NCBI GenBank assembly: GCA_045594705.1
Contig: JAZNZB010000020.1
Coordinates: 4,451 to 68,450 of the forward strand
From: Eubacteriales bacterium
Lineage (GTDB): Bacteria; Bacillota; Clostridia; Oscillospirales; CAG-272
Direction: 5' to 3'
DNA length: 64,000 bases
The notes beneath the pieces were generated by a model, which did no database searches, was not told where the DNA came from, and saw only the letters and a list, made by a program, of their open reading frames with translations. A program made the position numbers and the translations under genes. Below, piece by piece: positions 1,611 through 51,667 of the stretch (its first letter is position 1; each line of letters begins with the position of its first letter).

Positions 1611-1671
1611 GTCAAATCTCCTTTTCGGATTATTTGGTGATACAAATATTTTCACTTTGTACCATAAGCCC

Positions 1672-19613: not shown

Positions 19614-21209
19614 TCAATTTGTCACGTTCTCCATTTGCGCACAGAACTTATCAAGCTGCTTTGCAAACGATTTCTCGAATTTCTTCCAAACCGAGCTGAG
19701 CGAAGAGTTACCATTCTCCAACGCAGTGCGGAACAGCATGACCTTCTCACTATCCGTGGTAGCCATGTAATTGCAACCGAAATCAAAGGTCTTGGTCTCC
19801 AGGATCAGCTGCAGCATTTCGGTATCCTCCGGGGTAGCGCAGATGCGCATGGAGAGATCAAAATCATACAAGCCCTGGTTCAGCTGAGCCATAGCCTCCA
19901 GCGCATATCCCACAAACTCCTGATCGTGCGCGCTCTGCGGCACCATCACCGCCGTCGCGTTGCAATCCACGTAAGAGCGATAGTCCTTTACGTCCAGATC
20001 CGCCTTGGGATACGGAATGATTCCGAATTGCCCGGATGCGATGGCCATATTCATTGCCTTCTCCAGCGTTGCACCATAGAACAGTGCTCTGCCATCCGCA
20101 AAGGCCTTCTCGGGAACTTGCAGGCGGTCATAATCCTGCATGACGTCATTCATTGTAACCCATACCGACGCAGCGTTGTTGACCATGCTGTAAAGCACGT
20201 CGTACGGCCACGAGATCTGATCCATATTGGTATTGATCACGGGGATCTGCGCATCGTCCTTGACAAGCATGGACACGCCCGCACCCGTTGCAAAGGCTTG
20301 TGCACCATCAAACGTAGAAACGTAAGCGAACAGATCCGCGTCGGGATCCACCACAGCATTGTTGTTGAGATCCTCGTAGTTGTTCTCCACCATGGCAAGC
20401 ATCTTTTCCATGGTCCAGCCGCCTTCCATCACGTAGCTGTACATATCGATCTGATGTTGCGCGGCAAGATCGACGTTATACAGGATGACCGAGGTCTTGA
20501 GCATAGCGTCGGGCGTGATCACGCCTGTTGCCATGGGCAAATACGAGCCGAATGCCAGACCGTTGTATATATCCTCATCCCAACGGTCATTCGTCAGATC
20601 CACCCAAGGAAGGCCGGACAGATTGACCAAAGAACCGTTCTGCGCCAAGGGCGCGCCATCGCGGGCAATTGATCCGAATACGATATCAAAGCTTCCTTTA
20701 CCGGACATCACGTCGTTGCGCACCTGATCGTAAAGCAGGTCCTGCTCTATCAGAACGCCGTCTATTTCAATGCCGTAATAAGCCGTCACGACCTGATTGC
20801 GCGCATACGAAGCATCCGCTACGATATTGTCGCTTCTTTCTGCTCCAAGATCGTGCTCATGAATGCCAAGCAGCGTCAGTCTCTGGTCGGAATACCGATC
20901 CATGGGCAGCTCGACCCAAGGGCCGTCGGTCTCGATTTCCACGTACGTGACGTCCTCTGTCGCGATTTCAGTCTCGTCCCACCAGATATGATCGGTTCCC
21001 CAATCCACGTCGGTCACAATTTCTCCGATATTGACGTCTGTTTCGGCAATTCCCGGCTCGATCTCACCAAGGATATCTTCACCAGGCAGATCGATATTTC
21101 CAAGCAACTCGCCCACAAGCCCTCCGATTTCAAAATCAGCAAAGCTGCAAGCGGTCATTGCACAGGTCAGTGTCAAGCACAAAAGTGCGATCGCAAGTCT
21201 CTTTTTCAT
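19614..21209 (-). CDS. Solute-binding-protein-like lipoprotein, paralog A2
   Basis: ATG at 21209 is preceded by AGGAGG (the track start is a TTG 6 nt upstream). Lipobox MTACS. 19-nt gap to A1, so the two are probably co-transcribed. Confidence 0.7.
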   Translation of the reverse strand: MKKRLAIALLCLTLTCAMTACSFADFEIGGLVGELLGNIDLPGEDILGEIEPGIAETDVNIGEIVTDVDWGTDHIWWDETEIATEDVTYVEIETDGPWVELPMDRYSDQRLTLLGIHEHDLGAERSDNIVADASYARNQVVTAYYGIEIDGVLIEQDLLYDQVRNDVMSGKGSFDIVFGSIARDGAPLAQNGSLVNLSGLPWVDLTNDRWDEDIYNGLAFGSYLPMATGVITPDAMLKTSVILYNVDLAAQHQIDMYSYVMEGGWTMEKMLAMVENNYEDLNNNAVVDPDADLFAYVSTFDGAQAFATGAGVSMLVKDDAQIPVINTNMDQISWPYDVLYSMVNNAASVWVTMNDVMQDYDRLQVPEKAFADGRALFYGATLEKAMNMAIASGQFGIIPYPKADLDVKDYRSYVDCNATAVMVPQSAHDQEFVGYALEAMAQLNQGLYDFDLSMRICATPEDTEMLQLILETKTFDFGCNYMATTDSEKVMLFRTALENGNSSLSSVWKKFEKSFAKQLDKFCAQMENVTN

Positions 21210-21242
21210 ACGCAAGGCCTCCTTTGTTCGGTCTTTGATTTT

Positions 21243-21271: not shown

Positions 21272-21312
21272 TAGAAATAATATACCCTTTACTTATATAG
21301 ACGCCAAAAATG

Positions 21313-21350
21313 CAAAAAGGTTCCGCGAAATCAAGAAAAATTTCGCGGAA
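21313..21350 (-). terminator. Terminator after the metallophosphoesterase gene
   Basis: TTCCGCGAAAT-8 nt-ATTTCGCGGAA, an 11-bp stem followed on the minus strand by CCTTTTTGC. Confidence 0.6.
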
Positions 21351-21542: not shown

Positions 21543-22370
21543 TCAGTCACATGGATTTGCGGGAATCAGCGTGATCTTGCGCGAGATACCGAGGTACGCG
21601 CCACCTGTGATATACTGCACAAGCCCGGGGGCAAGCTCGTCCTCGTGCGAAAAATGCAAGTGCCCCGCGATCACAGCGGCAATGCCCGACGCGGGATCGC
21701 GTACGTACTCGCAAAACGCCGCCGTTGCCTCGTTTTTGAGGATCGCACCGGGGCCTATGTTGATATTTCTGCGCCAATCGCGCACCGTATCGTCATGCAG
21801 CGAAGGGCAATTGATGGGAATATGCACGCAAAGCAGGATCGGCTTGCCCTTCTCTCTCAATTCCTTCAGAAAATCAATATCTTCTTGCTGCACGCACTCC
21901 ATGCCGTCGTCGATACCCGCCACGATCAGATCGGGATACTCCAGATAGTGCCGCGCGACCGCACCGTCCGAAAGTGCTGTAAACTTGCCATAGTGCTGCG
22001 CTCTTGCCCCCTCGGTATGATAATCGTCCGAATACGACCAATCGTGATTGCCTATGACAAACATGGTCCCCAGGCCGCCTGCCCCGATCTCGCGATACAA
22101 ATCGCGCACATTTGGGTCGCTTGGCGTATCCACAATATCCCCGGTCATGAGCATCAGATCTGCGCCCCATTCGCGCGCATCGGCATAAAAGCCCTGCAGT
22201 CTTTTCACACAAGGCGTGCCGTCGGTTTCAAAAATACATCTTGCACGCAAGGCCGCCTCGTCGTGGCGAAACTGCGGGTCATTCTCGCCCATCCCCGTCA
22301 GATGCAGATCGGTGATATGATACAGCTTGTACGTATGCCGTAAGCCCTTGATGGCAATGGTGGTTTCCAT
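21543..22370 (-). CDS. Calcineurin-like metallophosphoesterase
   Basis: Start refined to METTIAIKG (ATG at 22370, AGGAG upstream). Motifs ITDLHL, GDIVD, GNHDW and GHLH. Confidence 0.8.
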   Translation of the reverse strand: METTIAIKGLRHTYKLYHITDLHLTGMGENDPQFRHDEAALRARCIFETDGTPCVKRLQGFYADAREWGADLMLMTGDIVDTPSDPNVRDLYREIGAGGLGTMFVIGNHDWSYSDDYHTEGARAQHYGKFTALSDGAVARHYLEYPDLIVAGIDDGMECVQQEDIDFLKELREKGKPILLCVHIPINCPSLHDDTVRDWRRNINIGPGAILKNEATAAFCEYVRDPASGIAAVIAGHLHFSHEDELAPGLVQYITGGAYLGISRKITLIPANPCD

Positions 22371-22380
22371 ATGCTTCTCC

Positions 22381-22662
22381 TTAGCCGAACGAGAGTCGAA
22401 CCAAGTTGGTTTTGACGGGCAGATTTGTCCGATCCCTTCATCTTTTCCCTTGGACATATTGCCTATATGCCCCGCGGGAAAAGCTTTTGGGCTCGAAAAA
22501 ATCTGCTGCGTCAAAACTGCTCGCACCCGTCGGCGAATGCATTTTTGATAGATTTTGGTGTGATTTTGCGCAGCAAGATACAAATCTTGCAAGCGAAAGC
22601 GCGCCGAAAGATGCGAAAATGCATCGTCGTCGGGCAATTCGGTTCGATTCCCGTTCGGCTAA
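22381..22662. mobile_element. MITE-like 282-bp element with 22-bp terminal inverted repeats and no ORF
   Basis: Left TTAGCCGAACGAGAGTCGAACC and right GGTTCGATTCCCGTTCGGCTAA pair at 20 of 22 positions. The interior is full of short hairpins. It fills the gap between the B1 stop and the metallophosphoesterase RBS. Confidence 0.45.
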
Positions 22663-22709: not shown

Positions 22710-24179
22710 TTAGTAATCGTAGCCGTAAGCCTCGTAGATTTTTTTCAGAGCCTTATTGGTCTGCTTTTCGCTCGTGGTAATGTCTCTGGTGATAGAGGCA
22801 CTCTTGTTGTTGAGCGCGGTCTGAGCGATGGATGCGCAAGGCAGGCCGTCGTTGTGGAAGTGGGTATAGCCAAAGTCGAATACTCTGTGACGAATGATGA
22901 CGTCAACCATCTCAGCGGACTCCTCGTCACGTGCGTTCTTGGACTTAGCAACCTTATCATACAACGTATCGGATACCATGTAGTAAGAGGTGGAAGCCAG
23001 AACCTCCAGCATGTAGCCGGCGTCTGCCAGAGCCTCCTCGGAAAGGCTCTTGGGTACGCATGCGGTGGAAGCTGCACCGTTGACAAAGCTCAGGTACTCT
23101 TCCTGCTTCTCGTCGTACTTGGGCTGAGGCAGAATACCGAACTCATTCTCCATCTCACGGAAACCCGTGCAATCGGACAGGGAGCCTGCAAAGAACAGCG
23201 CTCTGCCTGCCTTGAATACGTTCGCGGGCTCCTGATACATCGAGTTGTTTGCAAGGTACTCGTTAACGGTTACGTGGAAGGACTGCTGGGTCACGATCAG
23301 CTCGTAGATCTTTTCGTAAACGGTCTGCAGTCTGTCGGTATTGGGCTGGTATACGGGCAGGTGGTCCTCGTCAAAGGTGAACATGGTGCAGCCTGCACCG
23401 AACCAGAAGTTGTAGTCGCATGCCAACGACCAACCTACAAGACCGTAGAAGTCGTCGGTGTAGTTGACTTTACCGTCACCGTTGAGGTCACGGGTCTGAT
23501 CCTTGGTGATTTCCAGCATGTCATCAATGGTCCAAGTGCCGTCTCTTGCATCATCGTAGGGATAATCAAGGCTTTGCTCGTCGAACAGGGACTTGTTGAA
23601 AATCATGGCAGCGGTAATCATCATGGAGGAAGGCAGCAGGTCGCCGCACACCACGAACATGTTGTCACCGAACATAAAGCCGTTCTTGCAGTCCTGGTCC
23701 CACCAAGGGTTGTCAAAGTTGACGTACTCCAGGTCGGTCAGGTTATACAGGCAGTTACCCATACCCAGGTTGGTAGCAGCGTTTACCATGTGCTGGTAAA
23801 CGATGTGGTATTCACCACTACCGGAGCTGACGTCGTTCTTGACCTTGTCGCCAAGTGCAACGTAGTCAAGCTCAAGCAGAGGATTGAGCGTTACACCGTA
23901 GAAGTTCTGGATCTTGTCGTTTCTTCTGTAAACGGCGTCCTCCAGGGGGTCGGATTTGTCCGGCTCCTCTGCGCCCATATCGGTCTCGGAGTTTGCAAGA
24001 ATATTGATCTCCTTGCCCTTCAGACCCTCGTTGGGCTCCAGATCGGGGCTGACCCAGTTGGTCTCTTCCTCGGTGGAGGCATCGGTAGAGGTATCCTCAT
24101 TCCCCGTCTCCGCACAAGCAGCGAACACACTGATCAGCATCAGGCCGCACAAAAGCATAGCGAAAAGCTTCTTGTACAT
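22710..24179 (-). CDS. Solute-binding-protein-like lipoprotein, paralog B1
   Basis: 489 aa. Lipobox VFAACAE. Motifs WWDQDCKNGF and DLNGDGK. Has its own promoter and terminator. Nearly identical to B2. Confidence 0.75.
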   Translation of the reverse strand: MYKKLFAMLLCGLMLISVFAACAETGNEDTSTDASTEEETNWVSPDLEPNEGLKGKEINILANSETDMGAEEPDKSDPLEDAVYRRNDKIQNFYGVTLNPLLELDYVALGDKVKNDVSSGSGEYHIVYQHMVNAATNLGMGNCLYNLTDLEYVNFDNPWWDQDCKNGFMFGDNMFVVCGDLLPSSMMITAAMIFNKSLFDEQSLDYPYDDARDGTWTIDDMLEITKDQTRDLNGDGKVNYTDDFYGLVGWSLACDYNFWFGAGCTMFTFDEDHLPVYQPNTDRLQTVYEKIYELIVTQQSFHVTVNEYLANNSMYQEPANVFKAGRALFFAGSLSDCTGFREMENEFGILPQPKYDEKQEEYLSFVNGAASTACVPKSLSEEALADAGYMLEVLASTSYYMVSDTLYDKVAKSKNARDEESAEMVDVIIRHRVFDFGYTHFHNDGLPCASIAQTALNNKSASITRDITTSEKQTNKALKKIYEAYGYDY

Positions 24180-24408: not shown

Positions 24409-25878
24409 TTAGTAATCGTAGCCGTATGCCTCGTAGATCTTTTTCAGAGCCTTATTGGTCTGCTTTTCGCTCTTGGTAATGTCTCTGGTGATAGAGGCAC
24501 TCTTGCTGTTGAGCGCGGTCTGAGCGATGGATGCGCAAGGCAGGCCGTCGTTGTGGAAGTGGGTATAGCCAAAGTCGAATACTCTGTGACGGATGATGAC
24601 GTCAACCATCTCAGCGGACTCCTCGTCACGTGCGTTCTTGGACTTAGCAACCTTATCATACAGCGTATCGGATACCATGTAGTAAGAGGTGGAAGCCAGA
24701 ACCTCCAGCATGTAGCCGGCGTCTGCCAGAGCCTCCTCGGAAAGGCTCTTGGGTACGCATGCGGTGGAAGCTGCGCCGTTGACAAAGCTCAGGTACTCTT
24801 CCTGCTTTTCATCATACTTGGGCTGAGGCAGGATACCGAATTCGTTCTCCATCTCGCGCAGACCCGTACCTGCGGACAGGTAGCCTGCAAAGAACAGTGC
24901 TCTGCCTGCCTTGAATACGTTGGTGGGCTCGGTGTACATGGAGTTGTTGGCCAGGTACTCCTGAACGGTCACGTGGAAGGACTGCTGAGTTACGATCAGC
25001 TCGTAGATCTTATCGTAGACGGTCTGCAGTCTGTCAGCGTTAGGCTGGTATACGGGCAGGTGATCCTCGTCAAAGGTGAACATGGTGCAGCCTGCGCCGA
25101 ACCAGAAGTTGTAGTCACAGTCGAGCGACCAGCCTACAAGGCCGTAGAAGTCGTCGGTGTAAAGTACCTTACCGTCACCGTTGAGGTCACGGGTCTGGTC
25201 CTTGGTCATCAGCAGCATGTCGTCGATGGTCCAGGTGCCGTCTCTTGCATCCTGGTAAGGATACTCAAGGCTCTGCTCGTCGAACAGATTCTTGTTGAAC
25301 ATAACGGCAGCGGTGATCATCATAGAGGAAGGCAGCAGGTCGCCGCAGACCACGAACATGTTGTCACCGAACATAAAGCCGTTCTTGCAGTCCTGGTCCC
25401 ACCAGGGGTTGTCAAAGTTGACGTACTCCAGGTCGGTCAGGTTATACAGGTTGCCACTGGTACCAAGGTTGGTAGCAGCGTCTACCATGTGCTGGTATAC
25501 GATGTGGTATTCACCACTGCCCGAGGTAACGTCGTTCTTGACCTTAGTGGAAAGTGCAGTGTAATCGGTCTCTGTGAGCGCATTGAGAGTCACGCCGTAG
25601 AAGTTTTGGATTTTGTCGTTTCTTCTGTAAACGGCGTCCTCCAGGGGATCGGATTTGTCCGGCTCTTCTGCACCCATATCGGTCTCATTCTGTGTAAGGA
25701 TGTTGATCTCCTTGCCCTTCAGACCCTCGTTGGGCTCCAGATCGGCACTGACCCAGTTGGTCTCTTCCTCGGTGGAGGCATCGGTAGAGGTATCCTCATT
25801 CCCCGTCTCCGCACAAGCAGCGAACACACTGATCAGCATCAGGCCGCACAAAAGCATAGCTAAAAGCTTCTTGTACAT
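24409..25878 (-). CDS. Solute-binding-protein-like lipoprotein, paralog B2 (recent duplicate of B1)
   Basis: 489 aa, same length and frame as B1. About 37 aa differences by manual alignment, clustered in the first two thirds. The last ~150 aa differ at only 2 positions. Confidence 0.75.
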   Translation of the reverse strand: MYKKLLAMLLCGLMLISVFAACAETGNEDTSTDASTEEETNWVSADLEPNEGLKGKEINILTQNETDMGAEEPDKSDPLEDAVYRRNDKIQNFYGVTLNALTETDYTALSTKVKNDVTSGSGEYHIVYQHMVDAATNLGTSGNLYNLTDLEYVNFDNPWWDQDCKNGFMFGDNMFVVCGDLLPSSMMITAAVMFNKNLFDEQSLEYPYQDARDGTWTIDDMLLMTKDQTRDLNGDGKVLYTDDFYGLVGWSLDCDYNFWFGAGCTMFTFDEDHLPVYQPNADRLQTVYDKIYELIVTQQSFHVTVQEYLANNSMYTEPTNVFKAGRALFFAGYLSAGTGLREMENEFGILPQPKYDEKQEEYLSFVNGAASTACVPKSLSEEALADAGYMLEVLASTSYYMVSDTLYDKVAKSKNARDEESAEMVDVIIRHRVFDFGYTHFHNDGLPCASIAQTALNSKSASITRDITKSEKQTNKALKKIYEAYGYDY

Positions 25879-26045: not shown

Positions 26046-27521
26046 TCAGTCGTCGTAGCCGTAAGCCTCCAGAATCTTATCCAGTTCCTTTCGGGTATTC
26101 TTTTGCGAATTGGTCAGATCTCTGACGATCGAGGGACGCTTATCCTGCAGCGCAACCATGACAATATTGGAGCACGGCAGATTCTTGTGTGAGAAATGCA
26201 GATAACCGAAATCAAAGACTTTGTGACGGATGATGATGTCCACCATTTCGGCAGACTCCTCGTCGCGCGCGTTCTTGGACTTGGCGATCACGTCGTACAG
26301 CGTATCCGTTACCATATAGTAAGACGAGGACGCCAGCGCCTCCATCATAAAGCCGGTGGTCTCCAGCTTTTGCTCGGACAGGCTGACGGGGACGATCGCG
26401 ATGCTTGCAGCCGCGTTGACAAAGCCGAGATAATCCTTTTGCGATTCGTCATACTTGGGCTGCGGCAGGATGCCGTAGTCGTCGATCATGTCACGCAGAT
26501 TGGTGGTGATGGACAGATTGGTGGGAAACAGCAGCGCGCGTCCGTCACGGAACACCTCAATGGTGCCGAAATACAGATTGTTGTCCTTGAGATACTCGTT
26601 ATAGGTCAGATGGTAGGTATCGGGAGAAAGCAGCAGCGCGGAGGTCTTCTCGTAGATCGACTGCAGCTTATCGGTGTCGGGGGCAAAGGTGGGAATATGC
26701 TGATCATCGTAGGTGAACATGGTCGCGCCCGCACCGTAAAAGAAGTTATAATCGCAGTCCAGTGCCCAAGAGGTAATGCCGAAGAAATCGTCGGTATACA
26801 AAATCTTGCCGTCACCGTTAAGGTCCTTGGCCTGGTCCTTGATCATTCCCTGCATATCGTCCATGGTCCACGTGCCTGCTCTGGCGTCGTCGTAGGGGTA
26901 TTCCCAGCCGCGCTCATCAAACAGGTTCTTGTTGAACAGCACCGAGCCCGTGATCAGCTGCGTCGTGGGGATCAGGTCGCCGCAGGCCATCATCATATGA
27001 TCGCCGATGGCAAGACCGTTCTTGCAGTCCTGGTCCCACCAGGTCTGATCAAAGTCCACGAACTCCAGCTCGGACAGATCGTACAAATAGCCGCCCAGGG
27101 CGAGATTGTACGCAGCGTTGCCCATATGCTGATACACCAGATTGAATTCACCCGTTCCCGCAGCCGTATCGTTCTTGATCGCATCCGCGATCACGTCAAG
27201 GCTGGGCTCGTCGGCATTATTGAATTTGATCCCGTATTCTGTCTGCAGTCGGTCGTTTCTGCGGTACACCGCATCCTCAAGCGGATCGGACGAATTCTCC
27301 TCCGGACCAATATCATATCTGCTTTGCGCCAAAATGACGAACTCCTGCCCCGCAAGCGGCGTTTCAAGCTTGGAGGGATCCAGCGTCTCTGCAACCCATT
27401 GCTCTTTTTCCTCGGTTATCTCCGAGGACTGCTGCTCGTTTTCCCCTTGCGCGCAGCCCGCAAGCAAGCCCACAAGCATCAAAGCACTCAAAAGAAAACA
27501 CAAAATTCTGTCTTTCATCAT
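26046..27521 (-). CDS. Solute-binding-protein-like lipoprotein, paralog B3
   Basis: Start at ATGATGAAAGAC after a GAGG RBS. Lipobox LLAGCAQ. Shares the WWDQDCKNG, DLNGDGKI and KSKNARDEESAEMVD blocks with B1, B2 and B4. Confidence 0.75.
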   Translation of the reverse strand: MMKDRILCFLLSALMLVGLLAGCAQGENEQQSSEITEEKEQWVAETLDPSKLETPLAGQEFVILAQSRYDIGPEENSSDPLEDAVYRRNDRLQTEYGIKFNNADEPSLDVIADAIKNDTAAGTGEFNLVYQHMGNAAYNLALGGYLYDLSELEFVDFDQTWWDQDCKNGLAIGDHMMMACGDLIPTTQLITGSVLFNKNLFDERGWEYPYDDARAGTWTMDDMQGMIKDQAKDLNGDGKILYTDDFFGITSWALDCDYNFFYGAGATMFTYDDQHIPTFAPDTDKLQSIYEKTSALLLSPDTYHLTYNEYLKDNNLYFGTIEVFRDGRALLFPTNLSITTNLRDMIDDYGILPQPKYDESQKDYLGFVNAAASIAIVPVSLSEQKLETTGFMMEALASSSYYMVTDTLYDVIAKSKNARDEESAEMVDIIIRHKVFDFGYLHFSHKNLPCSNIVMVALQDKRPSIVRDLTNSQKNTRKELDKILEAYGYDD

Positions 27522-27552
27522 AAACCTCACTGTTTTCGGTATTTATACGAAT

Positions 27553-27635: not shown

Positions 27636-29117
27636 TCAATCGTAGCCGTAAGCTCTCAGAATCTTCTTGAGTTCGTTTCTGGTTCTTCTTTCGGAGTTGG
27701 TGATCTCCTTGACGATCGAGGTTCTGTTTGCCTGCAGCGCGGTCTGTGCAACGTTGAAGCAGGGGAAATCCTGACCGGAGAAATGCGAATAGCCAAAGTC
27801 AAACACCTTGTGACGGATGATGATATCCACCATTTGTGCAGATTCCTCATCACGAGCGTTCTTGGACTTGGCCACAACGTCGTAAAGGGTATCCGTGGTC
27901 ATGTGATAGGATGCGGACGCCAGTGCTTCCATCATAAAGCCTGCGACCTCCAGATTGGCATCACTCAGGCTGCCCGGCACGCACGCCATGCTTGCGCTGC
28001 CGTTGACAAAGCCGAGGTAATCCTCCTGCTTTTCGTCATACTTGGGGTTGGGCAGGATGCCGTAGTCGTCCACCATATCACGCAAAGAGGTGGTGGTGGA
28101 CAGGTAGGTCGGGAAGAACAGTGCTCTGCCGTCTCTGAATACGTCGATGGTCTTGTTGTACATGCCCGGATCTGTTTCGAACTGTGCCCAGATCACGTGG
28201 AAGGAATTCTGCGTAATCAGCAGTGCGTAGATCTTTTCGTAAATTGCCTGCAATCTGTCGGTGTCGGGATCAAATACGGGCAGGTGGTCCTCATCGTAGG
28301 AGAACATGGTCGCGCCCGAGCCGAAGAACAGATTGAAGTCCGCGTCTGCCGCCCATGCGGTCACACCGAAGAAATCGTCATCGTGGAAGATCTTGCCGTC
28401 ACCGTTGAGGTCCTTGGTCTGATCCTTGGTCAGCTCCAGCATATCGTCCATGGTCCAGTTCCCTTCCCGTGCGTCCTCGTAGGGGTAATCCCAGCCGTTG
28501 CGGTCGAACAGGTTCTTGTTAAACAGAACCGTTGCGGTGATCAGCATCGTCGAGGGCAGCAGGTCGCCGCACACCATCATCATGCTGTCGCCGATGACAA
28601 AGCCCTTCTTGCAATCCTGGTCCCACCACTCGTTATCAAAATTGACGTATTCCAGATCGGTCAGGTTATACAGATAATTGCCGGGAGCCAAGCTGCGCGC
28701 TGCCTCGATCATGTGCTGATACACGATGTGGAATTCACCCGTGCCCGCGGTCACGTCGTTTTTGACGTTGGTGGAAATGATATTGAAATCGGACTGATAC
28801 TGATTGTTGAATTCAATGCCCAGCTCAGCCTTGAGCTTGTCGTCTCTTCTGTAAACGGCATCCTCAAGCGGGTCGGACGAGTTTTCCTCGGGGCTGATAT
28901 CGTACTTATTGTACGCCAGAATATTGACCTGCTGTCCACGCAGGCTGACACTCAGCTTCTCGGGATCCAGCTCAGGGTTCATCCAATACGTTTCCTCTTC
29001 GGTAACGCCCTGGGAGCCTTCCGGGGTCTCTCCCTGATCGGGCTTATCCACGCAGCCTGCAAGCACAGCAAGCAGCATAAGCATACCGAGAAGGATGCAT
29101 ATGAGTCTGATCTTCAT
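27636..29117 (-). CDS. Solute-binding-protein-like lipoprotein, paralog B4
   Basis: ATG at 29117 follows a GAGG RBS (the track start is a TTG). Lipobox LAGCVD. Same conserved blocks as B1-B3. Confidence 0.75.
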   Translation of the reverse strand: MKIRLICILLGMLMLLAVLAGCVDKPDQGETPEGSQGVTEEETYWMNPELDPEKLSVSLRGQQVNILAYNKYDISPEENSSDPLEDAVYRRDDKLKAELGIEFNNQYQSDFNIISTNVKNDVTAGTGEFHIVYQHMIEAARSLAPGNYLYNLTDLEYVNFDNEWWDQDCKKGFVIGDSMMMVCGDLLPSTMLITATVLFNKNLFDRNGWDYPYEDAREGNWTMDDMLELTKDQTKDLNGDGKIFHDDDFFGVTAWAADADFNLFFGSGATMFSYDEDHLPVFDPDTDRLQAIYEKIYALLITQNSFHVIWAQFETDPGMYNKTIDVFRDGRALFFPTYLSTTTSLRDMVDDYGILPNPKYDEKQEDYLGFVNGSASMACVPGSLSDANLEVAGFMMEALASASYHMTTDTLYDVVAKSKNARDEESAQMVDIIIRHKVFDFGYSHFSGQDFPCFNVAQTALQANRTSIVKEITNSERRTRNELKKILRAYGYD

Positions 29118-29151
29118 TTGCAAAACCTCTCTTTAGTATAGAATTACCTGT

Positions 29152-29180
29152 ATTTTACCACTTTCACCCGAAATTGTCAA
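29152..29180 (-). promoter_or_regulatory. Sigma-A-type promoter for B4
   Basis: On the minus strand: TTGACA, 17 nt, TGgTAAAAT. Confidence 0.6.
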
Positions 29181-29192
29181 GTCATATTGGCT

Positions 29193-30701
29193 TCATTCTG
29201 CTTTTTTCTGTGCTTTGCGTCGGATCAGGCGTCTGATCAGAAGGGTCAGAACGACCACGATCGCGATCGCTGCCACCACAGCCAAAAGTCCCGGAAGAAC
29301 GGACATGACCGCGAATAAGAGAATGAAGAAAATCATACCGATGCCCGTGGTCTCGATCGGATTTTTCCACTTGCACAGCGTCACAGTATAGGCGCGCGTG
29401 GGTGTGGATCGCTCTGGCAGCGTGTATCCGTTCCGATCCTTTTTGTAGTCGTCGATCGAGACGCTGTTTTCCTCATCGGTCATGATCTTTTGCTTGGTAT
29501 TGATCCTGACCGTGTATTTTCCTACCGTTTTCCAATCAAATCCACCGTGGAAATGATAGGTGAAGGTGGCTGCCTTGGGGCTGTAATAGTCCATGACGTC
29601 GGGATACACCGGTAAAGTAATGGAATTGACCGTACTCTCGCCTGCGCCCAGCGTGACGTCATAGGTAAGAAAGCACTGCAGATTGGACGTGACGTCCAGC
29701 TCGACAGACACGCGGTGGCCCTGCTGCTTGCTATATCCCAGCAGGCAGCTGTCCTCCATGTGGCAATAGTCCATCATGTCCAGCACGGCGTTGTACCAAT
29801 CGTGCTCGGAAATGCCTGCATTCGGGTCGTACTCGCTCATGGCAAGCTCGCCAAAGGTGATGCTTTTCTTGTCAACAACGCGCACACCGGCACCCTGGAC
29901 GCGTTTGCCGTCGTCCAGCAGCTTCCAATTCACTTCTCCGACGTCCTCGCCCAGCACGTACAGCGTCACAAGCGAATCCTCCGAAACGCGCACGCGCAAT
30001 CTTGGCGTTCCGCTTTCCTCAAGCACGTTGACGTTGCGATCGGAAAAGATCAGCGTGCGGGATGCGTCGTACTCAAAGGGAGCGGTCATGTCGTAATAAA
30101 AGTACCCGTCCTCGTCAAGCTCGGAATAGGGCTGATAAGTATATACCGTGACAGGCAGATCGGGCGACAGGAGTGCATGCCCCGCATAGGAGTCGTGCAA
30201 TTCCTCGGCATACTCACGGGGATCGTAGCCGTTATAGCCGGTCCGATAGCCCTGCGGAAAGGACGTCCATACGTGACGCAGCTCGGGCGTGATACGCTCG
30301 CCATCCAGCTCGACCGTGTAAAGTGCGGTGCGCTGTGCGCTCGTTGCACTCCTCTCTGCATACGAGGGCAGATCCCCCGCAGCAAACATCATTTTTACCG
30401 TTTGCTCGGTGTCGGTGGGGTTGGAAAAGGTATAATCCAGGCGCAGCGTTGAGGAATACGACTCCAAGATCTCCGATTCGTCAAATTCATCTGCCGGCAG
30501 CTCGGGGATATCGTAGGTCAGCGCCAGGCTGTCCATGCAGAGCTGACTCTTGCGCCCCTCTGGGAAGACACCAAAGACGTCTATACCGGGCTCAGGCTCC
30601 AGCGACGACATGGCAGACACGGGCAGGACGGCCAAGGCGCACAGCAAAATTGCCATCGCGCCTGCAGCCGGGTGCTTGAAAAATTTTTGATATCGATTCA
30701 T
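29193..30701 (-). CDS. Single-pass surface protein of unknown family, paralog C1
   Basis: ATG at 30701 with GGAGG 7 nt upstream. Signal peptide ...ILLCALAVLPVSA. C-terminal TM helix plus an RRLIRRKAQKKAE tail. Shares NP[TS]D, RH.., TFGELAM..YDP..G...HDWYNAV and PVYP blocks with C2-C4. Confidence 0.75.
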   Translation of the reverse strand: MNRYQKFFKHPAAGAMAILLCALAVLPVSAMSSLEPEPGIDVFGVFPEGRKSQLCMDSLALTYDIPELPADEFDESEILESYSSTLRLDYTFSNPTDTEQTVKMMFAAGDLPSYAERSATSAQRTALYTVELDGERITPELRHVWTSFPQGYRTGYNGYDPREYAEELHDSYAGHALLSPDLPVTVYTYQPYSELDEDGYFYYDMTAPFEYDASRTLIFSDRNVNVLEESGTPRLRVRVSEDSLVTLYVLGEDVGEVNWKLLDDGKRVQGAGVRVVDKKSITFGELAMSEYDPNAGISEHDWYNAVLDMMDYCHMEDSCLLGYSKQQGHRVSVELDVTSNLQCFLTYDVTLGAGESTVNSITLPVYPDVMDYYSPKAATFTYHFHGGFDWKTVGKYTVRINTKQKIMTDEENSVSIDDYKKDRNGYTLPERSTPTRAYTVTLCKWKNPIETTGIGMIFFILLFAVMSVLPGLLAVVAAIAIVVVLTLLIRRLIRRKAQKKAE

Positions 30702-30761
30702 AAATTGTCCTCCGATTCGTTTAGCCTTCATCAATCAGGACAGGATTCTTCCGTTTTGGTT

Positions 30762-32246
30762 TCACTCTTGCTGCATTTTTTTGCGTTTTTTGCGCTTGAT
30801 GATCGCACGGACAATCAAAATCACAATCGCGACGGGCAGCGCAACGGCAAGCACCGGGACCAGCACGACGATCAGGATCAACACAATCATCAGCACCGAA
30901 TAGGCATTGAATACGCGCTTGGGATTTTCCGTGGAGCTGAGCGTAAACACCAGATCCCGCTCGGGCAGACCGTCAAGGTGCAGCTCGTAGCCCGCCTCGG
31001 TCTTGGTCCACTCCCCCGGAGCTATGCTAAACTCTCCCTTTCGTTCCTTGACCATGACGTACGGCGTGTTGACGTAAATATCCAACGTGCCGAACTCCTT
31101 CCAGAGCGAGGCGGGCGAGGTCAGATATTCATAGACGTAGATCGGAACGTCGTACCCTCCGTCAATATTCGGATAAAGCGGGGCTTTTACGGTATTGGTC
31201 AAACGCTCACCCGGTGCGAGCGTGATCTGATACTCGTACCATTGCAAAAGATTCCCGGAAATATCCCAGTCGTTCACGACACCGCCATACAGACCGATCG
31301 GCTTACCCGACTGCTCCAGCTGCGCCACAACTGCATTGAACCAATCGTGCGCCGCGATCCCCGACGCGGGATCATAGGCTTGCATGGCAAGCTCGCCAAA
31401 GGTGGTGCTTGTCTTGTCCACCACGCTCATACTGCCCTCGATCCGCGTTTCCAGGGAGCCGTTTTCATAAAACTCCCATTCCAAGGTCCCGACGTCCTCG
31501 CCAAACACGTACACCGTGATTTCGGGATCGGACAGGTGCACGGAAGCAAAGCCCGCATTTCCGCTCTCATCAGAGCTGTATCCGCTCATATGCTCCAGCA
31601 TAAAGCGCGTCTTTTCCAATGCTCCGTCAAAATACGTAGCCGCACGCGCCGCGCGGTAGGTCTCACGGTCCACGCCGCTGACGCTGTAGGTGTAGATATA
31701 TACGGGAAAATCAAAGGTCAAAAAGCTGTCGGTACGGTAATCGCTGTACAGCTTCGCCATTTCCTCGGCAGGGTCAAAATCATAAAGCGATCCGCCCCAA
31801 TAGCTGTGCCGAACCACGGTATCCACGTCTGCTCCGTTGACCTGTGCTCCGTATTTGGAAGCATTGTCGGGGGTGACGTATTCTCCCAGCTCGGAATTGT
31901 AAAATTCTGCGTAATAGGGGTTGATGCCAAACGGAAACAGCAGATTTGCCGTGACCGTCATGTCACTTGGATTATAAAAGGTATACTCTGCCGTCACGCT
32001 TGCATCATAATCCAGAAATTCTTGGGCGCTGCTAAAGTGATTTACGGGAAATTCCGCAATATCAAAGGTCAGCGTTTCGTGCTCGACCACCAACGGACAT
32101 TCCCCATCGGTGACCAGCACACCCGAAGCGTTGACGCCCTCCCAATACGACTGCGCGGAATTGGCGGACGCGGGCAGGATGGCAAGCAGGCACAGAAGTG
32201 CGGCTAAGAGAGCCGTGAAAGCCGCTTTGATTTGCTTACTCTTCAT
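30762..32246 (-). CDS. Single-pass surface protein of unknown family, paralog C2
   Basis: ATG at 32246 with a GGAG RBS that lies inside the C3 3' end (11-nt overlap). Signal peptide LLCLLAILPASA. C-terminal TM helix plus KRKKRKKMQQE. Confidence 0.75.
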   Translation of the reverse strand: MKSKQIKAAFTALLAALLCLLAILPASANSAQSYWEGVNASGVLVTDGECPLVVEHETLTFDIAEFPVNHFSSAQEFLDYDASVTAEYTFYNPSDMTVTANLLFPFGINPYYAEFYNSELGEYVTPDNASKYGAQVNGADVDTVVRHSYWGGSLYDFDPAEEMAKLYSDYRTDSFLTFDFPVYIYTYSVSGVDRETYRAARAATYFDGALEKTRFMLEHMSGYSSDESGNAGFASVHLSDPEITVYVFGEDVGTLEWEFYENGSLETRIEGSMSVVDKTSTTFGELAMQAYDPASGIAAHDWFNAVVAQLEQSGKPIGLYGGVVNDWDISGNLLQWYEYQITLAPGERLTNTVKAPLYPNIDGGYDVPIYVYEYLTSPASLWKEFGTLDIYVNTPYVMVKERKGEFSIAPGEWTKTEAGYELHLDGLPERDLVFTLSSTENPKRVFNAYSVLMIVLILIVVLVPVLAVALPVAIVILIVRAIIKRKKRKKMQQE

Positions 32247-33810
32247 CGTTTTTCTCCTTTTCCTCCCCTTCTGTTTCTGTGATTTTCTCGGGCTGCGGCG
32301 GGATTTGCTCTGCTGCCCTTCTCTTTTTCCTTACTTTTCTGACGATCAGAAAGATGATCAGCGCAAGAATTGCCAAAGGCACCGCCACGGGAAGGATGAC
32401 ACAAACAAACAGTGCGATCAGAATCACAAGCAAATACAAAAGCAATGCAATAATTGAACTGTCAAACGGTTTTTGCTTTTCGCAGACAGAGATCACCAGA
32501 TAGTCAAAATCCGTATCTCCCTCCCAGCAATAGCCGTCCTCGGTTTGCTCATATTCCTTTTGGCTCGGAGTGGGGGCATCCACGTCACACAAATACAGAT
32601 CGGTCAGAATGCGCACGCTTGTCGGTCCGCACGTGCTCCAGGCTTCCGCTGCCGTCATGGCAAAGGCGTAGGTATATACCGACGGACTGTAATAACCGTG
32701 CTCAAACGGATGCAGAGGTGCCGTGACTTTCACCGTAGCACTCTGCCCCGGTGCCAGCGTAAGATCAAAGCTGTTCCAGGCTTGCAGGTTGCTCTCATTA
32801 AGCTCCACCGTATCTCCCATATACGTCACGGCAGTACCCTCGGTCCGATTGCTCGTGATATATGCAACAACTGCATTATAGTAGTCGATTTCGGATACAC
32901 TTCCCTGCGCGTCATAGCCTTTCATAATCAGCTCGTAAAAGGACATTGTGGTTTTTGAAACCAACGTCACGCGCGCGTCCAATCGGTCTCCGTCCGCATC
33001 CACCGTCCAAGCCACCTCTCCTACGTCTGCGCCGATCGAATAGACGGTGGGGTTTTCACGATTAAACCCGGGAAAAGAAATTCTTACCTTGTTCTCTCCC
33101 GCATTGGCAGGATACCACGCATTGGCAGGATACCACGCATCGGTGACAAGCACCGCGCACCTTGACGGATCGGCAACCAAAGAGCCCGACACTTCAAACA
33201 TATTATCCTTTTGCGAGGTATCGTATTCGGTGCGATAGGCATATACGTAAACGGTCGCATCCGGTGCAAGAAGGGAGTGCGGAACGTAAGTATCCGAATA
33301 ATAAGCAAGAAATGCTGAGGCAGGGTCACGTTTTCCAAGTTGCGTGGGTGCGTGATAGTAGCTGTTATCCGGCGTATAGGAATGGCGCTGCTGCGCCTGT
33401 ACCTGTTCCCCATCGATCTCCACGGTGTACTTATTTGCATCCGTGCCGTCCGGCAGATCGTATGCATACCAGGGATCAGTGCCGATGGGCGTCAACATAC
33501 GCTCGGTGACGGTCTGATCGGTGGGATTGTGTATCGTATACGTGGCTATCGTATTTGCACTGTACGCAAGAAACTCTTCTTCGGTCTTGTACCGACTCTC
33601 GGGCGGCAGCTCACAGGCGTTCAGTTCAATCTCGGTACGTTCCAGCGCAAGCGCGGTGGCCCCGTCCGCAACGAACAAACCACCCGCCACGCTGCCGGCA
33701 TATGGCCCCGCGGGGTCAATGGCAGCAGATGCAGGCATGACGGCAAGGGCGCAAAGCAAAATGCAGAGTGCCATGATACAAGACAGCTTTTGGATCGAAT
33801 ATTTCATCAT
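32236..33810 (-). CDS. Single-pass surface protein of unknown family, paralog C3
   Basis: Signal peptide ILLCALAVMPASA. C-terminal TM helix followed by a basic-then-acidic tail. Contains an in-frame 18-bp tandem duplication (AWYPAN x2). Confidence 0.75.
   Translation of the reverse strand: MMKYSIQKLSCIMALCILLCALAVMPASAAIDPAGPYAGSVAGGLFVADGATALALERTEIELNACELPPESRYKTEEEFLAYSANTIATYTIHNPTDQTVTERMLTPIGTDPWYAYDLPDGTDANKYTVEIDGEQVQAQQRHSYTPDNSYYHAPTQLGKRDPASAFLAYYSDTYVPHSLLAPDATVYVYAYRTEYDTSQKDNMFEVSGSLVADPSRCAVLVTDAWYPANAWYPANAGENKVRISFPGFNRENPTVYSIGADVGEVAWTVDADGDRLDARVTLVSKTTMSFYELIMKGYDAQGSVSEIDYYNAVVAYITSNRTEGTAVTYMGDTVELNESNLQAWNSFDLTLAPGQSATVKVTAPLHPFEHGYYSPSVYTYAFAMTAAEAWSTCGPTSVRILTDLYLCDVDAPTPSQKEYEQTEDGYCWEGDTDFDYLVISVCEKQKPFDSSIIALLLYLLVILIALFVCVILPVAVPLAILALIIFLIVRKVRKKRRAAEQIPPQPEKITETEGEEKEKNDEE
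33101..33140. repeat. In-frame 18-bp tandem duplication inside C3
   Basis: GCATTGGCAGGATACCAC occurs twice (33101..33118 and 33119..33136), followed by a partial third copy. It encodes AWYPAN-AWYPAN. Confidence 0.9.
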
Positions 33811-33840
33811 TTTGCTCCTTTCTCTTCCGTTTTTTCTGTG

Positions 33841-35355
33841 TCAATCCGCCTCCGGGTCACTCGGCGGATCTTTCGGTTGGGTTTTGATCAGTTTTTTGAC
33901 TCTTGCGTGCAAGATCGCGGCGCGGATCAGCTTGACAAGACCGATGATCGCAAGCACGAAAAGCGCAAGGAGCACGATCAGCACAAGCAGCAAAAGCCCC
34001 AGGCCGCTGTATAGAGTATCCCCGATCCAGTTGAATGGGATCTTGGTCTTGCAGACCGAGAACAGGATCATTTCCTCGCTCGGATAGGGATGGTCAATGA
34101 TCAGCTTATATTCTCCCTTGGGAATGGTATAATCCGAGCCATACGAGCTTGCATCCACCGTGGCATAGCCGGGCGTATGCACGTGCAGCTCGACCCTGCC
34201 CACCGATGCAAAGCGGCCAAGCCCCTCTATATCGTAAGCGTATTCGTACACGCAGGGCGCATACCAGTTCATAATATCGGGATACGCAGGCGTGAGGGTA
34301 ACCAGCTCGGCACGCTCGCCCGGTTCAAGTGCGATCTCAAAGATCAGCCAGCCCTGCAGATACTCGTACACGTTGTGCGAGCGCAGCGCGCTATGCAGGC
34401 CATTATCTGCAAAATACAAATAAACAGCGTTATACCAATCCATTTCGGACACGCCGTACGCAGCATCGTAGTACTGCATGGCAAGATCCTTGAACGTGAT
34501 CTGCCTTTTGCCTTCAAACGCTACGGTCACGTTGCCCGGATCGGACTCTGCGCCCTCCCAAGGCTCGGCCTCCCAGGAAAGCGCGTCGATATCCTGACCG
34601 ATCACGTAAACCTCAAAGGTTTCTCCATGCTCACTTGCATATGCAAACAGCTTGCCGCGGCTCCAAGCGCCGCTATCCACGTAAACGCACGTCGCCTGAA
34701 CGTCCACGTAAGGGTGATCCTTTGCGACCAAGCGAAAATCCGTCAACTTGCAGCCGTCAGGATTGCTTACTTTGTAAGTATGTACGGTCACGGTCTGCTC
34801 GGGGTAAAACATCTCGTCGGTCAGATACACTTGCGCGGGAAGTGTTTGGTCATCGTACGCGCCCGACCACATGGGCTCACGCGTATCATCCCTTTGCGGA
34901 TACTTTGTAAGTGTATGGCGCACAGTGGCCTCGACACTCTGCCCCTTGAAGGTGATGCTGTACGCACCCTCGTAGGGCAGCACGGCTTCAAGCGGCTCAT
35001 CTCCGCTCGTATAATCGGGTTCCTTGCAAAGCGGAATGGCCATGACCTCGCTGACGCGCTCGTCCGTGGGGTTATACAGCGCGTAGGTTGAGCCGACCAC
35101 CGAGTAATGCTTCCATACGCTCTCGGTGCTGTCCTGCTGCTTGGGCTCGGGCGGCAGATCCACGTCCACGTCCACGCGCAAGGACTCCAGCTGCAGCACG
35201 CTGCTTTTTGCAAGCGGTGCGGCACCGTACGCGCGCGAACCGGGATACGGAGAGACGCCAAAAGCAAAAGAAGGCATGACGGCAAGGACGCAAAGCAAAA
35301 TTGCCGTCGCGCCTGCCGTCATGCTCTTGAGTATGGCTGTGAAATTTTTCTTCAT
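33841..35355 (-). CDS. Single-pass surface protein of unknown family, paralog C4
   Basis: ATG at 35355 (MKKNFTAILKS) with GGAGG 8 nt upstream. Signal peptide ILLCVLAVMPSFA. C-terminal TM helix plus a basic tail. Confidence 0.75.
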   Translation of the reverse strand: MKKNFTAILKSMTAGATAILLCVLAVMPSFAFGVSPYPGSRAYGAAPLAKSSVLQLESLRVDVDVDLPPEPKQQDSTESVWKHYSVVGSTYALYNPTDERVSEVMAIPLCKEPDYTSGDEPLEAVLPYEGAYSITFKGQSVEATVRHTLTKYPQRDDTREPMWSGAYDDQTLPAQVYLTDEMFYPEQTVTVHTYKVSNPDGCKLTDFRLVAKDHPYVDVQATCVYVDSGAWSRGKLFAYASEHGETFEVYVIGQDIDALSWEAEPWEGAESDPGNVTVAFEGKRQITFKDLAMQYYDAAYGVSEMDWYNAVYLYFADNGLHSALRSHNVYEYLQGWLIFEIALEPGERAELVTLTPAYPDIMNWYAPCVYEYAYDIEGLGRFASVGRVELHVHTPGYATVDASSYGSDYTIPKGEYKLIIDHPYPSEEMILFSVCKTKIPFNWIGDTLYSGLGLLLLVLIVLLALFVLAIIGLVKLIRAAILHARVKKLIKTQPKDPPSDPEAD

Positions 35356-35474
35356 AGACGTTTCCTCCAAATCATAATGCGGTTGGGGGCTTCTATCTAT
35401 ACAGTCGGGAAAAATGTGTTTTCGTTCCGATTTTCGCCAAAAAAGGTTTGTTAATATTTTATGAACTGTTCGGA

Positions 35475-50876: not shown

Positions 50877-50984
50877 TTTACTTTTTCTCCTTTTCAATTT
50901 TGATTGGCGTGCCTTTGGCACTATCATTTTTCCCTCGGGGCGCAATGGAAAGGGCGCACCTTCGGGCTAATAAAATGAACAATG

Positions 50985-51509
50985 TTATTTTTTCTTTACG
51001 GGGGAGATCACAACGCTGAGCAGCTTACCGTTGAGTACGGGCTTCTTGTCTGTCGTACCAAGGTCCGCTACGTCCGCAATAAATCTGTCGATCATGTCCT
51101 TACCCAGCTGCTGGTGGCTCATCTCACGGCCGTGGAACACCAGAACGACCTTGACCTTGTTGCCCTGCTCGAGGAACTTGCGGCCACGCTTCATTTTGGT
51201 TTCGTAGTCGTGGGTGTCAATGCGGCAGGAAAGCTGAATCTCCTTGATCTCAATCACCTGCTGCTTTTTCTTGGCTTCCTTTTCGCGCTTATCCTTTTCA
51301 AAGCGATACTTGCCGTAGTCCATGATCTTGCAAACGGGGGGATTTGCATCGGGAGACATCATCACAAGGTCCAAAGACTTGTCGTAAGCCATCTGAAGTG
51401 CCGCTTCAGAGCTCATGATACCGAGCATTGCGCCGTCAGTGCCGATCACGCGGATCTGCGCACAGTTGATCTCTTCATTAATAAGCGTGTCTTTTTGATT
51501 GGTAGCGAT
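50985..51509 (-). CDS. infC: Translation initiation factor IF-3, probable non-AUG (ATC) start
   Basis: The in-frame extension upstream of the track ORF reads IATNQKDTLINEEINCAQIRVIGTDGAMLG, the conserved IF-3 N-terminus. ATC at 51509 lies 9 nt after GGAGG. infC is known to use AUU/AUC/AUA starts. Confidence 0.8.
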   Translation of the reverse strand: MATNQKDTLINEEINCAQIRVIGTDGAMLGIMSSEAALQMAYDKSLDLVMMSPDANPPVCKIMDYGKYRFEKDKREKEAKKKQQVIEIKEIQLSCRIDTHDYETKMKRGRKFLEQGNKVKVVLVFHGREMSHQQLGKDMIDRFIADVADLGTTDKKPVLNGKLLSVVISPVKKK

Positions 51510-51660
51510 GGGTATGCACCTCCGAAAAATAAAAATCGTACAGAAGCATTCTGCCCCCGTACGCCCACTGCACCGACCTTTGCCGACACAAGAAAAGAGA
51601 ATATCAACCCATGCGCGCTCACGGCGGCAGGGTGGAAACCGAGGGGCTTCACTTCATTTA
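51510..51660 (-). promoter_or_regulatory. ~150-nt GC-rich 5' leader of infC-rpmI-rplT (candidate L20-type autoregulatory leader)
   Basis: Lies between the consensus promoter and the infC RBS. L20-binding leaders are known upstream of infC in Firmicutes. The structure was not verified here. Confidence 0.35.
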
Positions 51661-51667
51661 CCGTGCT

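Follow-up and report, generated by a model that had tools for sequence, protein, structure and literature searches.

The DNA considered here is a window of 64,000 nucleotides (nt) from a Eubacteriales bacterium of the CAG-272 lineage (GenBank contig JAZNZB010000020.1, positions 4,451 to 68,450 of the forward strand), and its numbering is used throughout. Between rsfS on one side and a series of solute-binding protein (SBP)-like lipoprotein genes on the other, four consecutive genes, all on the minus strand, encode proteins of about 500 amino acids (Table 1). A first-pass annotation had described them as an array of divergent paralogues, and the open reading frame (ORF) list of the window bears this out, as four co-oriented ORFs are present exactly where it had put them. 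A GGAGG-type ribosome-binding site lies 5′ of the ATG in 4 of the 4 genes, and in a four-way alignment the products are 27-29% identical over their full length. Genes 1 and 2 are separated by 30 nt and genes 2 and 3 overlap by 11 nt, as first reported, but the gap between genes 3 and 4, with the gene 4 ATG at 30701, is 60 nt and not 30 nt.

Table 1. Positions of the array genes, of signals associated with them and of other features of the window (ECF, extracytoplasmic function; HMM, hidden Markov model; TM, transmembrane; aa, amino acids)
Feature	Position	Strand	Description
Gene 1	33841..35355	-	504 aa; divergent paralogue (ORF, family HMM E=3.5e-121, tree position)
Gene 2	32236..33810	-	524 aa; divergent paralogue (ORF, family HMM, tree)
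Gene 3	30762..32246	-	494 aa; canonical family orthologue, grouped by the tree with single-copy Clostridia genes
Gene 4	29193..30701	-	502 aa; divergent paralogue (ORF, family HMM, tree)
Domains of the gene 3 protein	residues 1-28; 29-445; 448-494		Signal peptide; ectodomain, with mature N-terminus NSAQSYWEG; TM helix and basic tail
Hallmark NSAQxxWxG of gene 3	32136..32162	-	Codons 29-37, directly after the predicted A-x-A signal-peptidase site
Signal-peptide tract of gene 1	35264..35301	-	Recombination junction; identity peak; aligns, read as 35301-35264, with L005 6485-6522
Matching signal-peptide tract of gene 2	33725..33762	-	Identity profile; aligns, read as 33762-33725, with L005 6485-6522
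Predicted ECF-sigma-type promoter of the array	35403..35428	-	-35 GGAAC, 16-nt spacer, -10 CGACT followed by GTATAGATAGAAGCCCCC
Candidate weak internal ECF-like promoter for gene 4	30738..30763	-	GAAAC-N16-TGTCC; overlaps the gene 3 stop codon
Near-consensus sigmaA promoter	29152..29180	-	TTGACA-17-TAAAAT, extended -10 (TG)
First SBP-like lipoprotein paralogue	27636..29123	-	
Second SBP-like lipoprotein paralogue	26046..27530	-	
Third SBP-like lipoprotein paralogue	24409..25878	-	
Fourth SBP-like lipoprotein paralogue	22710..24179	-	
Metallophosphoesterase gene	21543..22637		Interrupts the SBP-like series
Second predicted ECF-type promoter	21299..21324	-	GGAAC-N16-CGTCTATATAAGTA; 84 nt upstream of the fifth SBP-like gene
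Fifth SBP-like lipoprotein paralogue	19614..21215	-	533 aa; lipobox ...MTAC; putatively co-regulated with the array
Sixth SBP-like lipoprotein paralogue	18134..19594	-	
CotH-domain gene	14163..17936	-	1,257-aa protein with LTD, Fn3-associated/CHB_HEX_C, CotH kinase and RCC1-repeat domains; same position in L001
spoIIIA genes	~8.4-13.2 kb		
ORF	171..1700	-	509 aa; no Pfam match at E≤1e-3
ORF	50982..51881	+	299 aa; no Pfam match at E≤1e-3

The architecture first proposed for the products, a signal peptide, a beta-rich ectodomain, a single C-terminal TM helix and a basic tail, is upheld by AlphaFold models and by the alignment of the wider family. A full-length AlphaFold2 model of the gene 3 protein, built from a 36-sequence alignment (predicted local distance difference test, pLDDT, 87; predicted template modeling score, pTM, 0.79), has an N-terminal helix that corresponds to the signal peptide, a beta-rich region from residue 33 to residue 440 and a long C-terminal helix at residues 448-493. 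Modeling of the ectodomain by itself from 109 sequences gave a pLDDT of 91.6 and a pTM of 0.89. The ectodomains are modestly rich in Tyr, Thr, Val, Ala and Glu, with Tyr contributing 7.5-8.5%, and the short islands of shared sequence recognized at first reading, Y..xNPxD, RH, F..L.M..YD...D..NAV and L..G...P..P...Y, are all invariant in the four paralogues.

The core of the signal peptide, LLC.LA..P..A, is also invariant in 4 of 4, in agreement with the first-pass annotation that drew attention to its Cys; that Cys is, however, neither part of a lipobox nor conserved in the family at large. It occurs as L-L-C inside the hydrophobic core, 8-9 residues before the A-x-A from which, by the -3/-1 rule, the position of signal-peptide cleavage was predicted, and identity of the array proteins as lipoproteins was rejected on this ground. 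A sortase-type sorting signal was rejected too: inspection of the four sequences found no LPXTG-like motif before the TM helix in any of them (0 of 4), and the tail of the gene 2 product reaches about 40 residues, with longer tails in homologues.

The array proteins are members of a large, unnamed, chromosomal family that is found across the Clostridia. None of the four has a match at threshold in Pfam, NCBIfam, PADLOC or PHROGs, and profiles of the family gave 0 matches to PDB sequences even at E≤10, so the original impression of a family with neither a name nor a recognized domain holds. A word-indexed search with the gene 3 product retrieved 251 proteins, all of them termed 'hypothetical protein' where their sources name them. 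Exhaustive searching of 1.84 billion representatives with a profile returned 1,555 clusters (50% identity) at E≤1e-3, with 740 at E≤1e-30, and nearly all are full-length at 450-530 amino acids. When GTDB was scanned with one genome taken for each species, 277 relatives were confirmed. Reference genomes with relatives include those of Oscillospiraceae (among them Pseudoflavonifractor capillosus ATCC 29799), Lachnospiraceae, Christensenellaceae, Anaerovoracaceae, Erysipelotrichaceae, Caldicoprobacterales, [Eubacterium] saphenum and others. A search of viral contigs and plasmids found no relatives; with no PADLOC or PHROG match and no relatives on viral contigs, identity as anti-phage defense or phage proteins was rejected.

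Among 143 diverse members of the family, 141 have the C-terminal TM segment and 121 the basic tail, while Y88, N92, R146 and D301 (gene 3 numbering) are invariant throughout. The predicted mature N-terminus, N-S-A-Q-x-x-W-x-G, which follows immediately on an A-x-A site of signal-peptidase type, is a hallmark shared by ~90% of members, with ANS[AGS] present in 126 of the 143 representatives, and further hallmark motifs are DWYNA and YLLSPA. Ahead of the TM segment the sole conserved element is GLPxGELxFxLS..E.P. The N-terminal NS motif is coupled with the YLLSPA motif in a way that is statistically strong, but as the coupling is driven by related array paralogues it does not constitute independent evidence. 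Longer members of the family have tail extensions only and no informative fused domains. One homologue of 604 amino acids, P0134, has an extra cytoplasmic extension of ~140 residues and a second TM segment after the anchor, and no domain was identified in this extension.

The first-pass view that the family cannot be placed does not survive at the superfamily level. For both models the top, and only significant, Foldseek match in the PDB is 4g2a (E=6e-7 and 4e-7, probability 1.0), with TM-scores of 0.35-0.46 (0.45-0.46 when target-normalized) and a root-mean-square deviation (rmsd) of ~10 Å over ~435 columns. This structure is of Legionella pneumophila lpg2210, the structural representative of Pfam DUF4424 (PF14415). 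Profile matches to DUF4424, all sub-threshold, occur in 21 of 36 family members (best E=7.5e-4) and cover residues ~83-146, the region of Y..xNPxD; against a gathering threshold of 27 bits the score is 11 for gene 3 and 14.6 for gene 4, and genes 1 and 2 give no match. The second-best Foldseek match is inter-alpha-inhibitor heavy chain (ITIH) 1, which has a VIT domain at its N-terminus (probability 0.75-0.92, E ~5e-3, TM-score ~0.2), and weak profile matches to VIT_2 are present in 6 of the 36 members (best E=6.5e-3). There are also weak Foldseek matches to LTA4H and IRAP, in the N-terminal domain of M1 aminopeptidases, and a viral structure library yielded only weak giant-virus ITIH-like matches. 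Because the profile matches agree independently with the structure search, the family is best placed as a separate, longer, TM-anchored and Clostridia-specific branch of the DUF4424/VIT-like sandwiches.

DUF4424 proteins are found mainly in Proteobacteria and Fusobacteria. They are secreted, have 300-360 amino acids folded as a three-sheet, 19-stranded beta-sandwich that resembles the accessory N-domain of LTA4H, and in ~30% of cases carry a C-terminal YARHG domain that has been proposed as an envelope anchor; they have no known function and no conserved gene context (PMC3848476). In common with the family they have an N-terminal signal peptide, an all-beta sandwich, which in the family is a predicted one, and, often, a surface-anchoring element. 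In contrast to it they are soluble or YARHG-bearing instead of having a C-terminal TM anchor, and the family is ~150 residues longer, is confined to Clostridia and has its own motifs, NSAQ..W.G, DWYNA and YLLSPA. Membership of DUF4424 was rejected because the scores are below the Pfam gathering score and because the array proteins, at 494-524 amino acids, have a C-terminal TM helix and, in the Pfam scan of the four, no match to YARHG. Threshold, size and architecture therefore all keep the two apart.

Membership of VIT or VIT_2 (PF08487 and PF13757) was rejected also. ITIH heavy chains (PDB 6fpy and 6fpz) are the second-best structural match and there are weak profile matches, but all scores are below threshold, and while a VIT domain is usually followed by a vWA domain, the Pfam scan of the four proteins found none after the sandwich. 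With the N-domain of M1 aminopeptidases and LTA4H the likeness is in the fold class of DUF4424 and in the Foldseek matches, which are not significant alone; the family has neither the zincin catalytic domain nor sequence similarity to these enzymes.

Another conceivable role for the ectodomain is a catalytic one, or that of the subunit by which an envelope hydrolase or peptidase recognizes its substrate, the active site being made up of the invariant Tyr, Asn, Arg and Asp and the processed N-terminus. Invariance of these four residues in all 143 members, and the high conservation of NSAQ, are in keeping with this, as is the fold being that of an N-terminal accessory domain. The LTA4H-type sandwich has an accessory, substrate-binding role, and a catalytic partner was proposed for DUF4424 by those who described it, but the beta-sandwich of M1 peptidases is not itself catalytic (PMC3848476). 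No catalytic family was matched in Pfam, NCBIfam or the PDB, and no conserved partner gene adjoins the family genes. That the array proteins are enzymes, or partners of one, is considered distinctly unlikely.

How the array arose is indicated by its distribution. When the family HMM was applied to the ORFs of 84 fetched loci, nearly all proved to have one stand-alone copy. Arrays of 3-6 copies are present only in L001, L005-L008, L010 and L012-L014, which are the close relatives of the window and come from ruminant-gut metagenome-assembled genomes (MAGs). Among close relatives the number of copies is 1, 3, 4, 5 or 6, and in L009 and L011 the canonical gene is alone at the rsfS locus; the MAG of L005 has a further canonical copy, L062, which stands alone. 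Pseudoflavonifractor capillosus ATCC 29799 and P. intestinihominis have single-copy orthologues (L037 and L020). A neighbor-joining tree places gene 3, with its orthologues, among the canonical single-copy genes, and genes 1, 2 and 4 in three long-branched paralogue clades, each with orthologues from sister MAGs. The four genes are a lineage-specific tandem expansion of one gene, with gene 3 the sole canonical orthologue and genes 1, 2 and 4 fast-evolving paralogues of a narrow clade.

The extent of divergence is considerable. A search of 5.8 billion clusters detected just 12 relatives of gene 1, and of 73 family-conserved columns gene 1 has kept 37, gene 2 40 and gene 4 42. All three lack the NSA N-terminus, P51, V54, E57 and F61 of the first strand, Y337 and the LLSPA motif, and their ectodomains have 5-6 cysteines compared with 1 in gene 3. 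For gene 3 dN/dS is 0.19 against its orthologue, for gene 2 0.60 against the L005 orthologue at a low dS of 0.05, for gene 4 0.25 against its L005 orthologue (74% amino acid identity, dS 0.67), and for gene 1 ~0.3-0.4 at saturated dS; that of a neighboring SBP-like gene is 0.07. Since the range of 0.19-0.60 points to purifying selection, genes 1, 2 and 4 are not pseudogenes. Along the array dS is a mosaic of 0.05, 0.18 and 0.67, compared with a neighbor baseline of 0.17, and this hints at allele exchange.

Recombination alters copy number as well. Mean pairwise nucleotide identity of the four genes is 0.64-0.67 in the signal-peptide-coding tract and ~0.4 elsewhere, ~32 nt at the signal-peptide core are nearly identical between genes 1 and 2, and the conservation of the signal-peptide Cys accompanies this DNA-level homogenization of the 5′ ends. 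The closest relative, L005 (MAG RGIG5376, from sheep colon, with ~92-96% DNA identity), is missing the body of gene 1, and its first gene has the gene 1 signal peptide joined to the gene 2 body with the junction in a tract of 38 nt. Because that one tract in L005 aligns to both gene 1 and gene 2 (Table 1), and the body of gene 1 has been lost, the conserved tract is one at which unequal recombination or gene conversion alters copy number.

Such features might be those of a variable surface set, that is of interchangeable and diversifying proteins, such as phage receptors, decoys or adhesins, with their variation driven by phage or host pressure. Copy number from 1 to 6 among close relatives, the recombinational deletion in L005, the allele exchange suggested by mosaic dS, an array dN far above that of the neighboring SBP gene, and the loss of half of the family-conserved positions from the paralogues can all be cited in its favor. 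Yet dN/dS is below 1 for all copies, neither machinery for phase variation nor an invertible element or a repeat tract was seen at the locus, there are no relatives in phages, and the canonical family is single-copy and well conserved in Clostridia, which fits a housekeeping role. It also needs to be kept in mind that a membrane-tethered ectodomain of ~415 residues may not span a Gram-positive wall. Overall this explanation seems unlikely.

The array had been described as directly downstream of the rsfS/nadD operon. No terminator-like site was found between rsfS and gene 1, as had been stated, but the array is not a mere tail to that operon, as the 119-nt spacer has a conserved ECF-type promoter motif of its own, GGAAC-N16-CGACTGTATAGATAGAAGCCCCC. 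It is 47 nt upstream of the gene 1 ATG, and the window contains only 2 exact matches to GRAAC-N16-CGWCT. In the alignment of 7 orthologous intergenic regions that defines its footprint, a -35 element G[A/G]AAC, a -10 element CG[T/A]CT.TATAG and the 16-nt spacing are conserved in L005, L008, L009, L012, L013 and L011, and the sequence of the spacer varies while its length stays at 16 nt. Conserved elements at a fixed distance, with variable sequence in between, are what a functional promoter of two parts should show.

The Bacillus subtilis consensus for sigM, sigW, sigX and sigV is tGAAAC, often followed by a T-tract, with CGTC, CGAC or CGTA after 16-17 nt (PMC5758882), and the array promoter conforms to it in sequence type and spacing. 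The two are alike in their two-part architecture and in preceding genes for membrane or secreted envelope proteins. They differ in the extended -10 (CGTCTATATAG), which is particular to these gut Firmicutes, and in that the use of an ECF sigma is here a prediction, with no sigma gene nearby. Judging from the motif and its conservation, the array is probably transcribed from an ECF-sigma-type promoter in an envelope-stress response, and it is plausible that its four genes are co-transcribed. A candidate weak internal ECF-like promoter for gene 4 is located in the 60-nt gap between genes 3 and 4 and resembles the variant -10 element of L011 (CTGTCTGTATG).

The ECF-type motif is also upstream of family genes in L062, L066, L077, L070, L058 and L060, and its frequency there is 4 in 63 compared with 2 in 820 controls (Fisher P=3e-4). 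Sites of the extended type number ~20, and 12 of them are directly upstream of family genes. In a metagenome set of at least 120 contigs, the extended motif precedes at least 3 ECF sigma genes (L100, L143 and L202) in contigs of other organisms, as expected for autoregulated ECF promoters. Among the metagenome matches listed, at least 32 of the 70 unique proteins encoded downstream of it have signal-peptide or TM-like N-termini, many of the downstream genes specify secreted proteins or lipoproteins, and none of them belongs to the family. This extended motif, as GGGAACATT.TAAAAA.TTTAGCGTCTATATAG, is present in L089, L090, L105 and L112 and, among the matches listed, in ~20 other metagenome loci, many of them human-gut contigs; it precedes a gene for a 147-amino-acid membrane-anchored Big_14 Ig-like protein, and another variant precedes one for a secreted protein of 102 amino acids. 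In a Caldicoprobacterales MAG (L032, 5824..9374), GGAAC-N16-CGTCTATTATAG precedes two lipoprotein genes (~320 and 261 amino acids) and then a single family gene, and this may be a small ECF-controlled envelope operon.

The promoter survey also bears on a link with sporulation, which the first-pass annotation had raised. That the array specifies sporulation or spore-surface proteins might be thought from its proximity to a CotH-domain gene and to spoIIIA genes (Table 1), and from the restriction of the family to Clostridia. However, 0 of 63 orthologue upstream regions match the consensus for sigmaE, sigmaF, sigmaG or sigmaK, with ECF- or sigmaA-type promoters there instead, and the neighbors of family genes are variable and mostly housekeeping. 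Furthermore, [Eubacterium] saphenum and Christensenellaceae, both carriers of the family, are generally regarded as non-sporulating. A role in sporulation is extremely unlikely.

The genes that follow the array encode six SBP-like lipoprotein paralogues of ~490-530 amino acids whose matches to SBP_bac_8 are weak or absent. Among the ORFs scanned in the window there is none for an ATP-binding cassette (ABC) permease or ATPase, and so the SBP-like proteins appear to be orphan solute-binding-like proteins. Immediately past gene 4, ahead of the first SBP-like gene, there is a strong, near-consensus sigmaA promoter, and because they have this promoter of their own the array-adjacent SBP-like genes are probably transcribed separately. 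The fifth, whose product is 28% identical to that of the first (E=4e-51), is preceded by the second predicted ECF-type promoter of the window, a site conserved in eight sister loci (L001, L006-L009 and L012-L014). The fifth and sixth SBP-like proteins are almost identical for their first ~45 residues, MKKR[LI]AIALLCL.LTCA.TAC.FADFE.GGLVGELLG..DLPG, and have ~25% identity afterwards, with homogenization of 5′ ends as in the family array.

A conserved envelope module of four genes, perhaps one co-occurring with the SBP-like genes, had been the initial suggestion, and its strictest form would have the four paralogues as obligate subunits of one hetero-oligomer working with the SBP-like lipoproteins. 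In its favor, the four genes lie close together in one orientation and have a common promoter, the SBP-like genes adjoin the array throughout the clade, and one of these has an ECF-type promoter too. Against this, most genomes have one copy and no SBP-like neighbor, close relatives have 1, 3, 4, 5 or 6 copies, L005 manages without gene 1, and the scanned ORFs of the window include none for an ABC permease or ATPase. SBP-like lipoprotein genes follow a family gene in the clade of the window only, and neither all-against-all clustering of flanking ORFs from the 84 loci nor inspection of immediate neighbors revealed any gene conserved beyond lineage-level synteny, the neighbors being variable and mostly housekeeping genes. 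Neither the module nor the co-occurrence is borne out, and an obligate four-subunit assembly is very unlikely. Distribution, copy-number and promoter data contradict it as they do a role in sporulation, and both are largely excluded. In L002 (9079..9972), and also in L003 and L004, a gene for a protein of ~280-297 amino acids is found 5′ of the family gene; it is lineage-local and not conserved elsewhere, and its product, with no Pfam match, has a Cys-rich N-terminal segment of CxxC repeats and then several TM helices.

The explanation that best accommodates these results, and that we regard as moderately probable, is that the array is a tandem expansion of an unnamed envelope family under an ECF-type promoter, its products being non-catalytic binding or scaffold proteins. 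Each would be exported with cleavage of its Sec signal peptide and be tethered by the C-terminal TM helix to the outer face of the cytoplasmic membrane, leaving the short basic tail in the cytoplasm and displaying an all-beta ectodomain of ~415 residues, remotely related to the beta-sandwiches of DUF4424/VIT. At the interface of membrane and wall the ectodomain would bind a partner protein or a ligand from the envelope or the environment. Gene 3 is the ancestral canonical copy and genes 1, 2 and 4 are older, fast-evolving duplicates maintained by purifying selection, with copies gained and lost by unequal recombination in the homogenized signal-peptide-coding tract. The divergent paralogues, which no longer have the canonical N-terminus or the LLSPA motif, may be variants of altered specificity. 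Genes 1-4 would be transcribed as one unit from the ECF-sigma-type promoter that they have downstream of rsfS, and the array, with at least one neighboring SBP-like lipoprotein gene, would thus be part of an extracytoplasmic (cell-envelope) response regulon in this lineage. Of these elements, the protein anatomy, the size and spread of the family, its duplication history, recombination, selection, the relationship of fold and the conservation of the promoter motif are established by the results, and the use of an ECF sigma and co-transcription are inferred. The binding or scaffold function is put forward, with low confidence, by analogy with the accessory, non-catalytic role of related beta-sandwiches.

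Several observations count against this explanation. The structural match to DUF4424 is modest (TM-score 0.35-0.46, rmsd ~10 Å), and since DUF4424 is itself without a known function a binding or scaffold role is an analogy. The invariant Y88, N92, R146 and D301, together with the conserved processed N-terminus, would equally suit an enzyme or a specific receptor site. As to regulation, the ECF motif is in just ~10% of orthologue upstream regions, in a few related lineages, with most other orthologues apparently having sigmaA-type promoters or being within operons, so that ECF control is not family-wide. In addition, the array elements, GGAAC at -35 and CGAC at -10, are slightly off the commonest GAAAC and CGTC, and the window encodes no ECF sigma or anti-sigma gene.

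A more adventurous interpretation, and an improbable one, is that the gene 3-type protein is a nearly universal envelope factor of gut Clostridia, with NSAQ..W.G and the Tyr, Asn, Arg and Asp forming a receptor or catalytic site for a cell-wall or host ligand. The ECF-controlled paralogues of this lineage would then be re-tuned variants, forming with co-regulated orphan SBP-like lipoproteins an extracytoplasmic system of a new type that captures or senses without an ABC transporter.

For the tandemly expanded envelope family favored above, the array does not by itself reveal a new mechanism, and its significance is more as a candidate for a new protein-family definition. It also illustrates how a membrane-protein family may expand and contract through recombination in homogenized signal-peptide sequences, and the ECF-type promoter provides a concrete and testable handle on when the array genes are used. 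The family is widespread in Clostridia of the human and animal gut and has a high-confidence fold, yet there is no Pfam or NCBIfam model for it. Its defining features would be a signal peptide, an N-terminus of the form NSAQ..W.G, a sandwich like that of DUF4424/VIT and a C-terminal anchor, and to define it would lift a recurring 'hypothetical protein' label from thousands of gut genomes.

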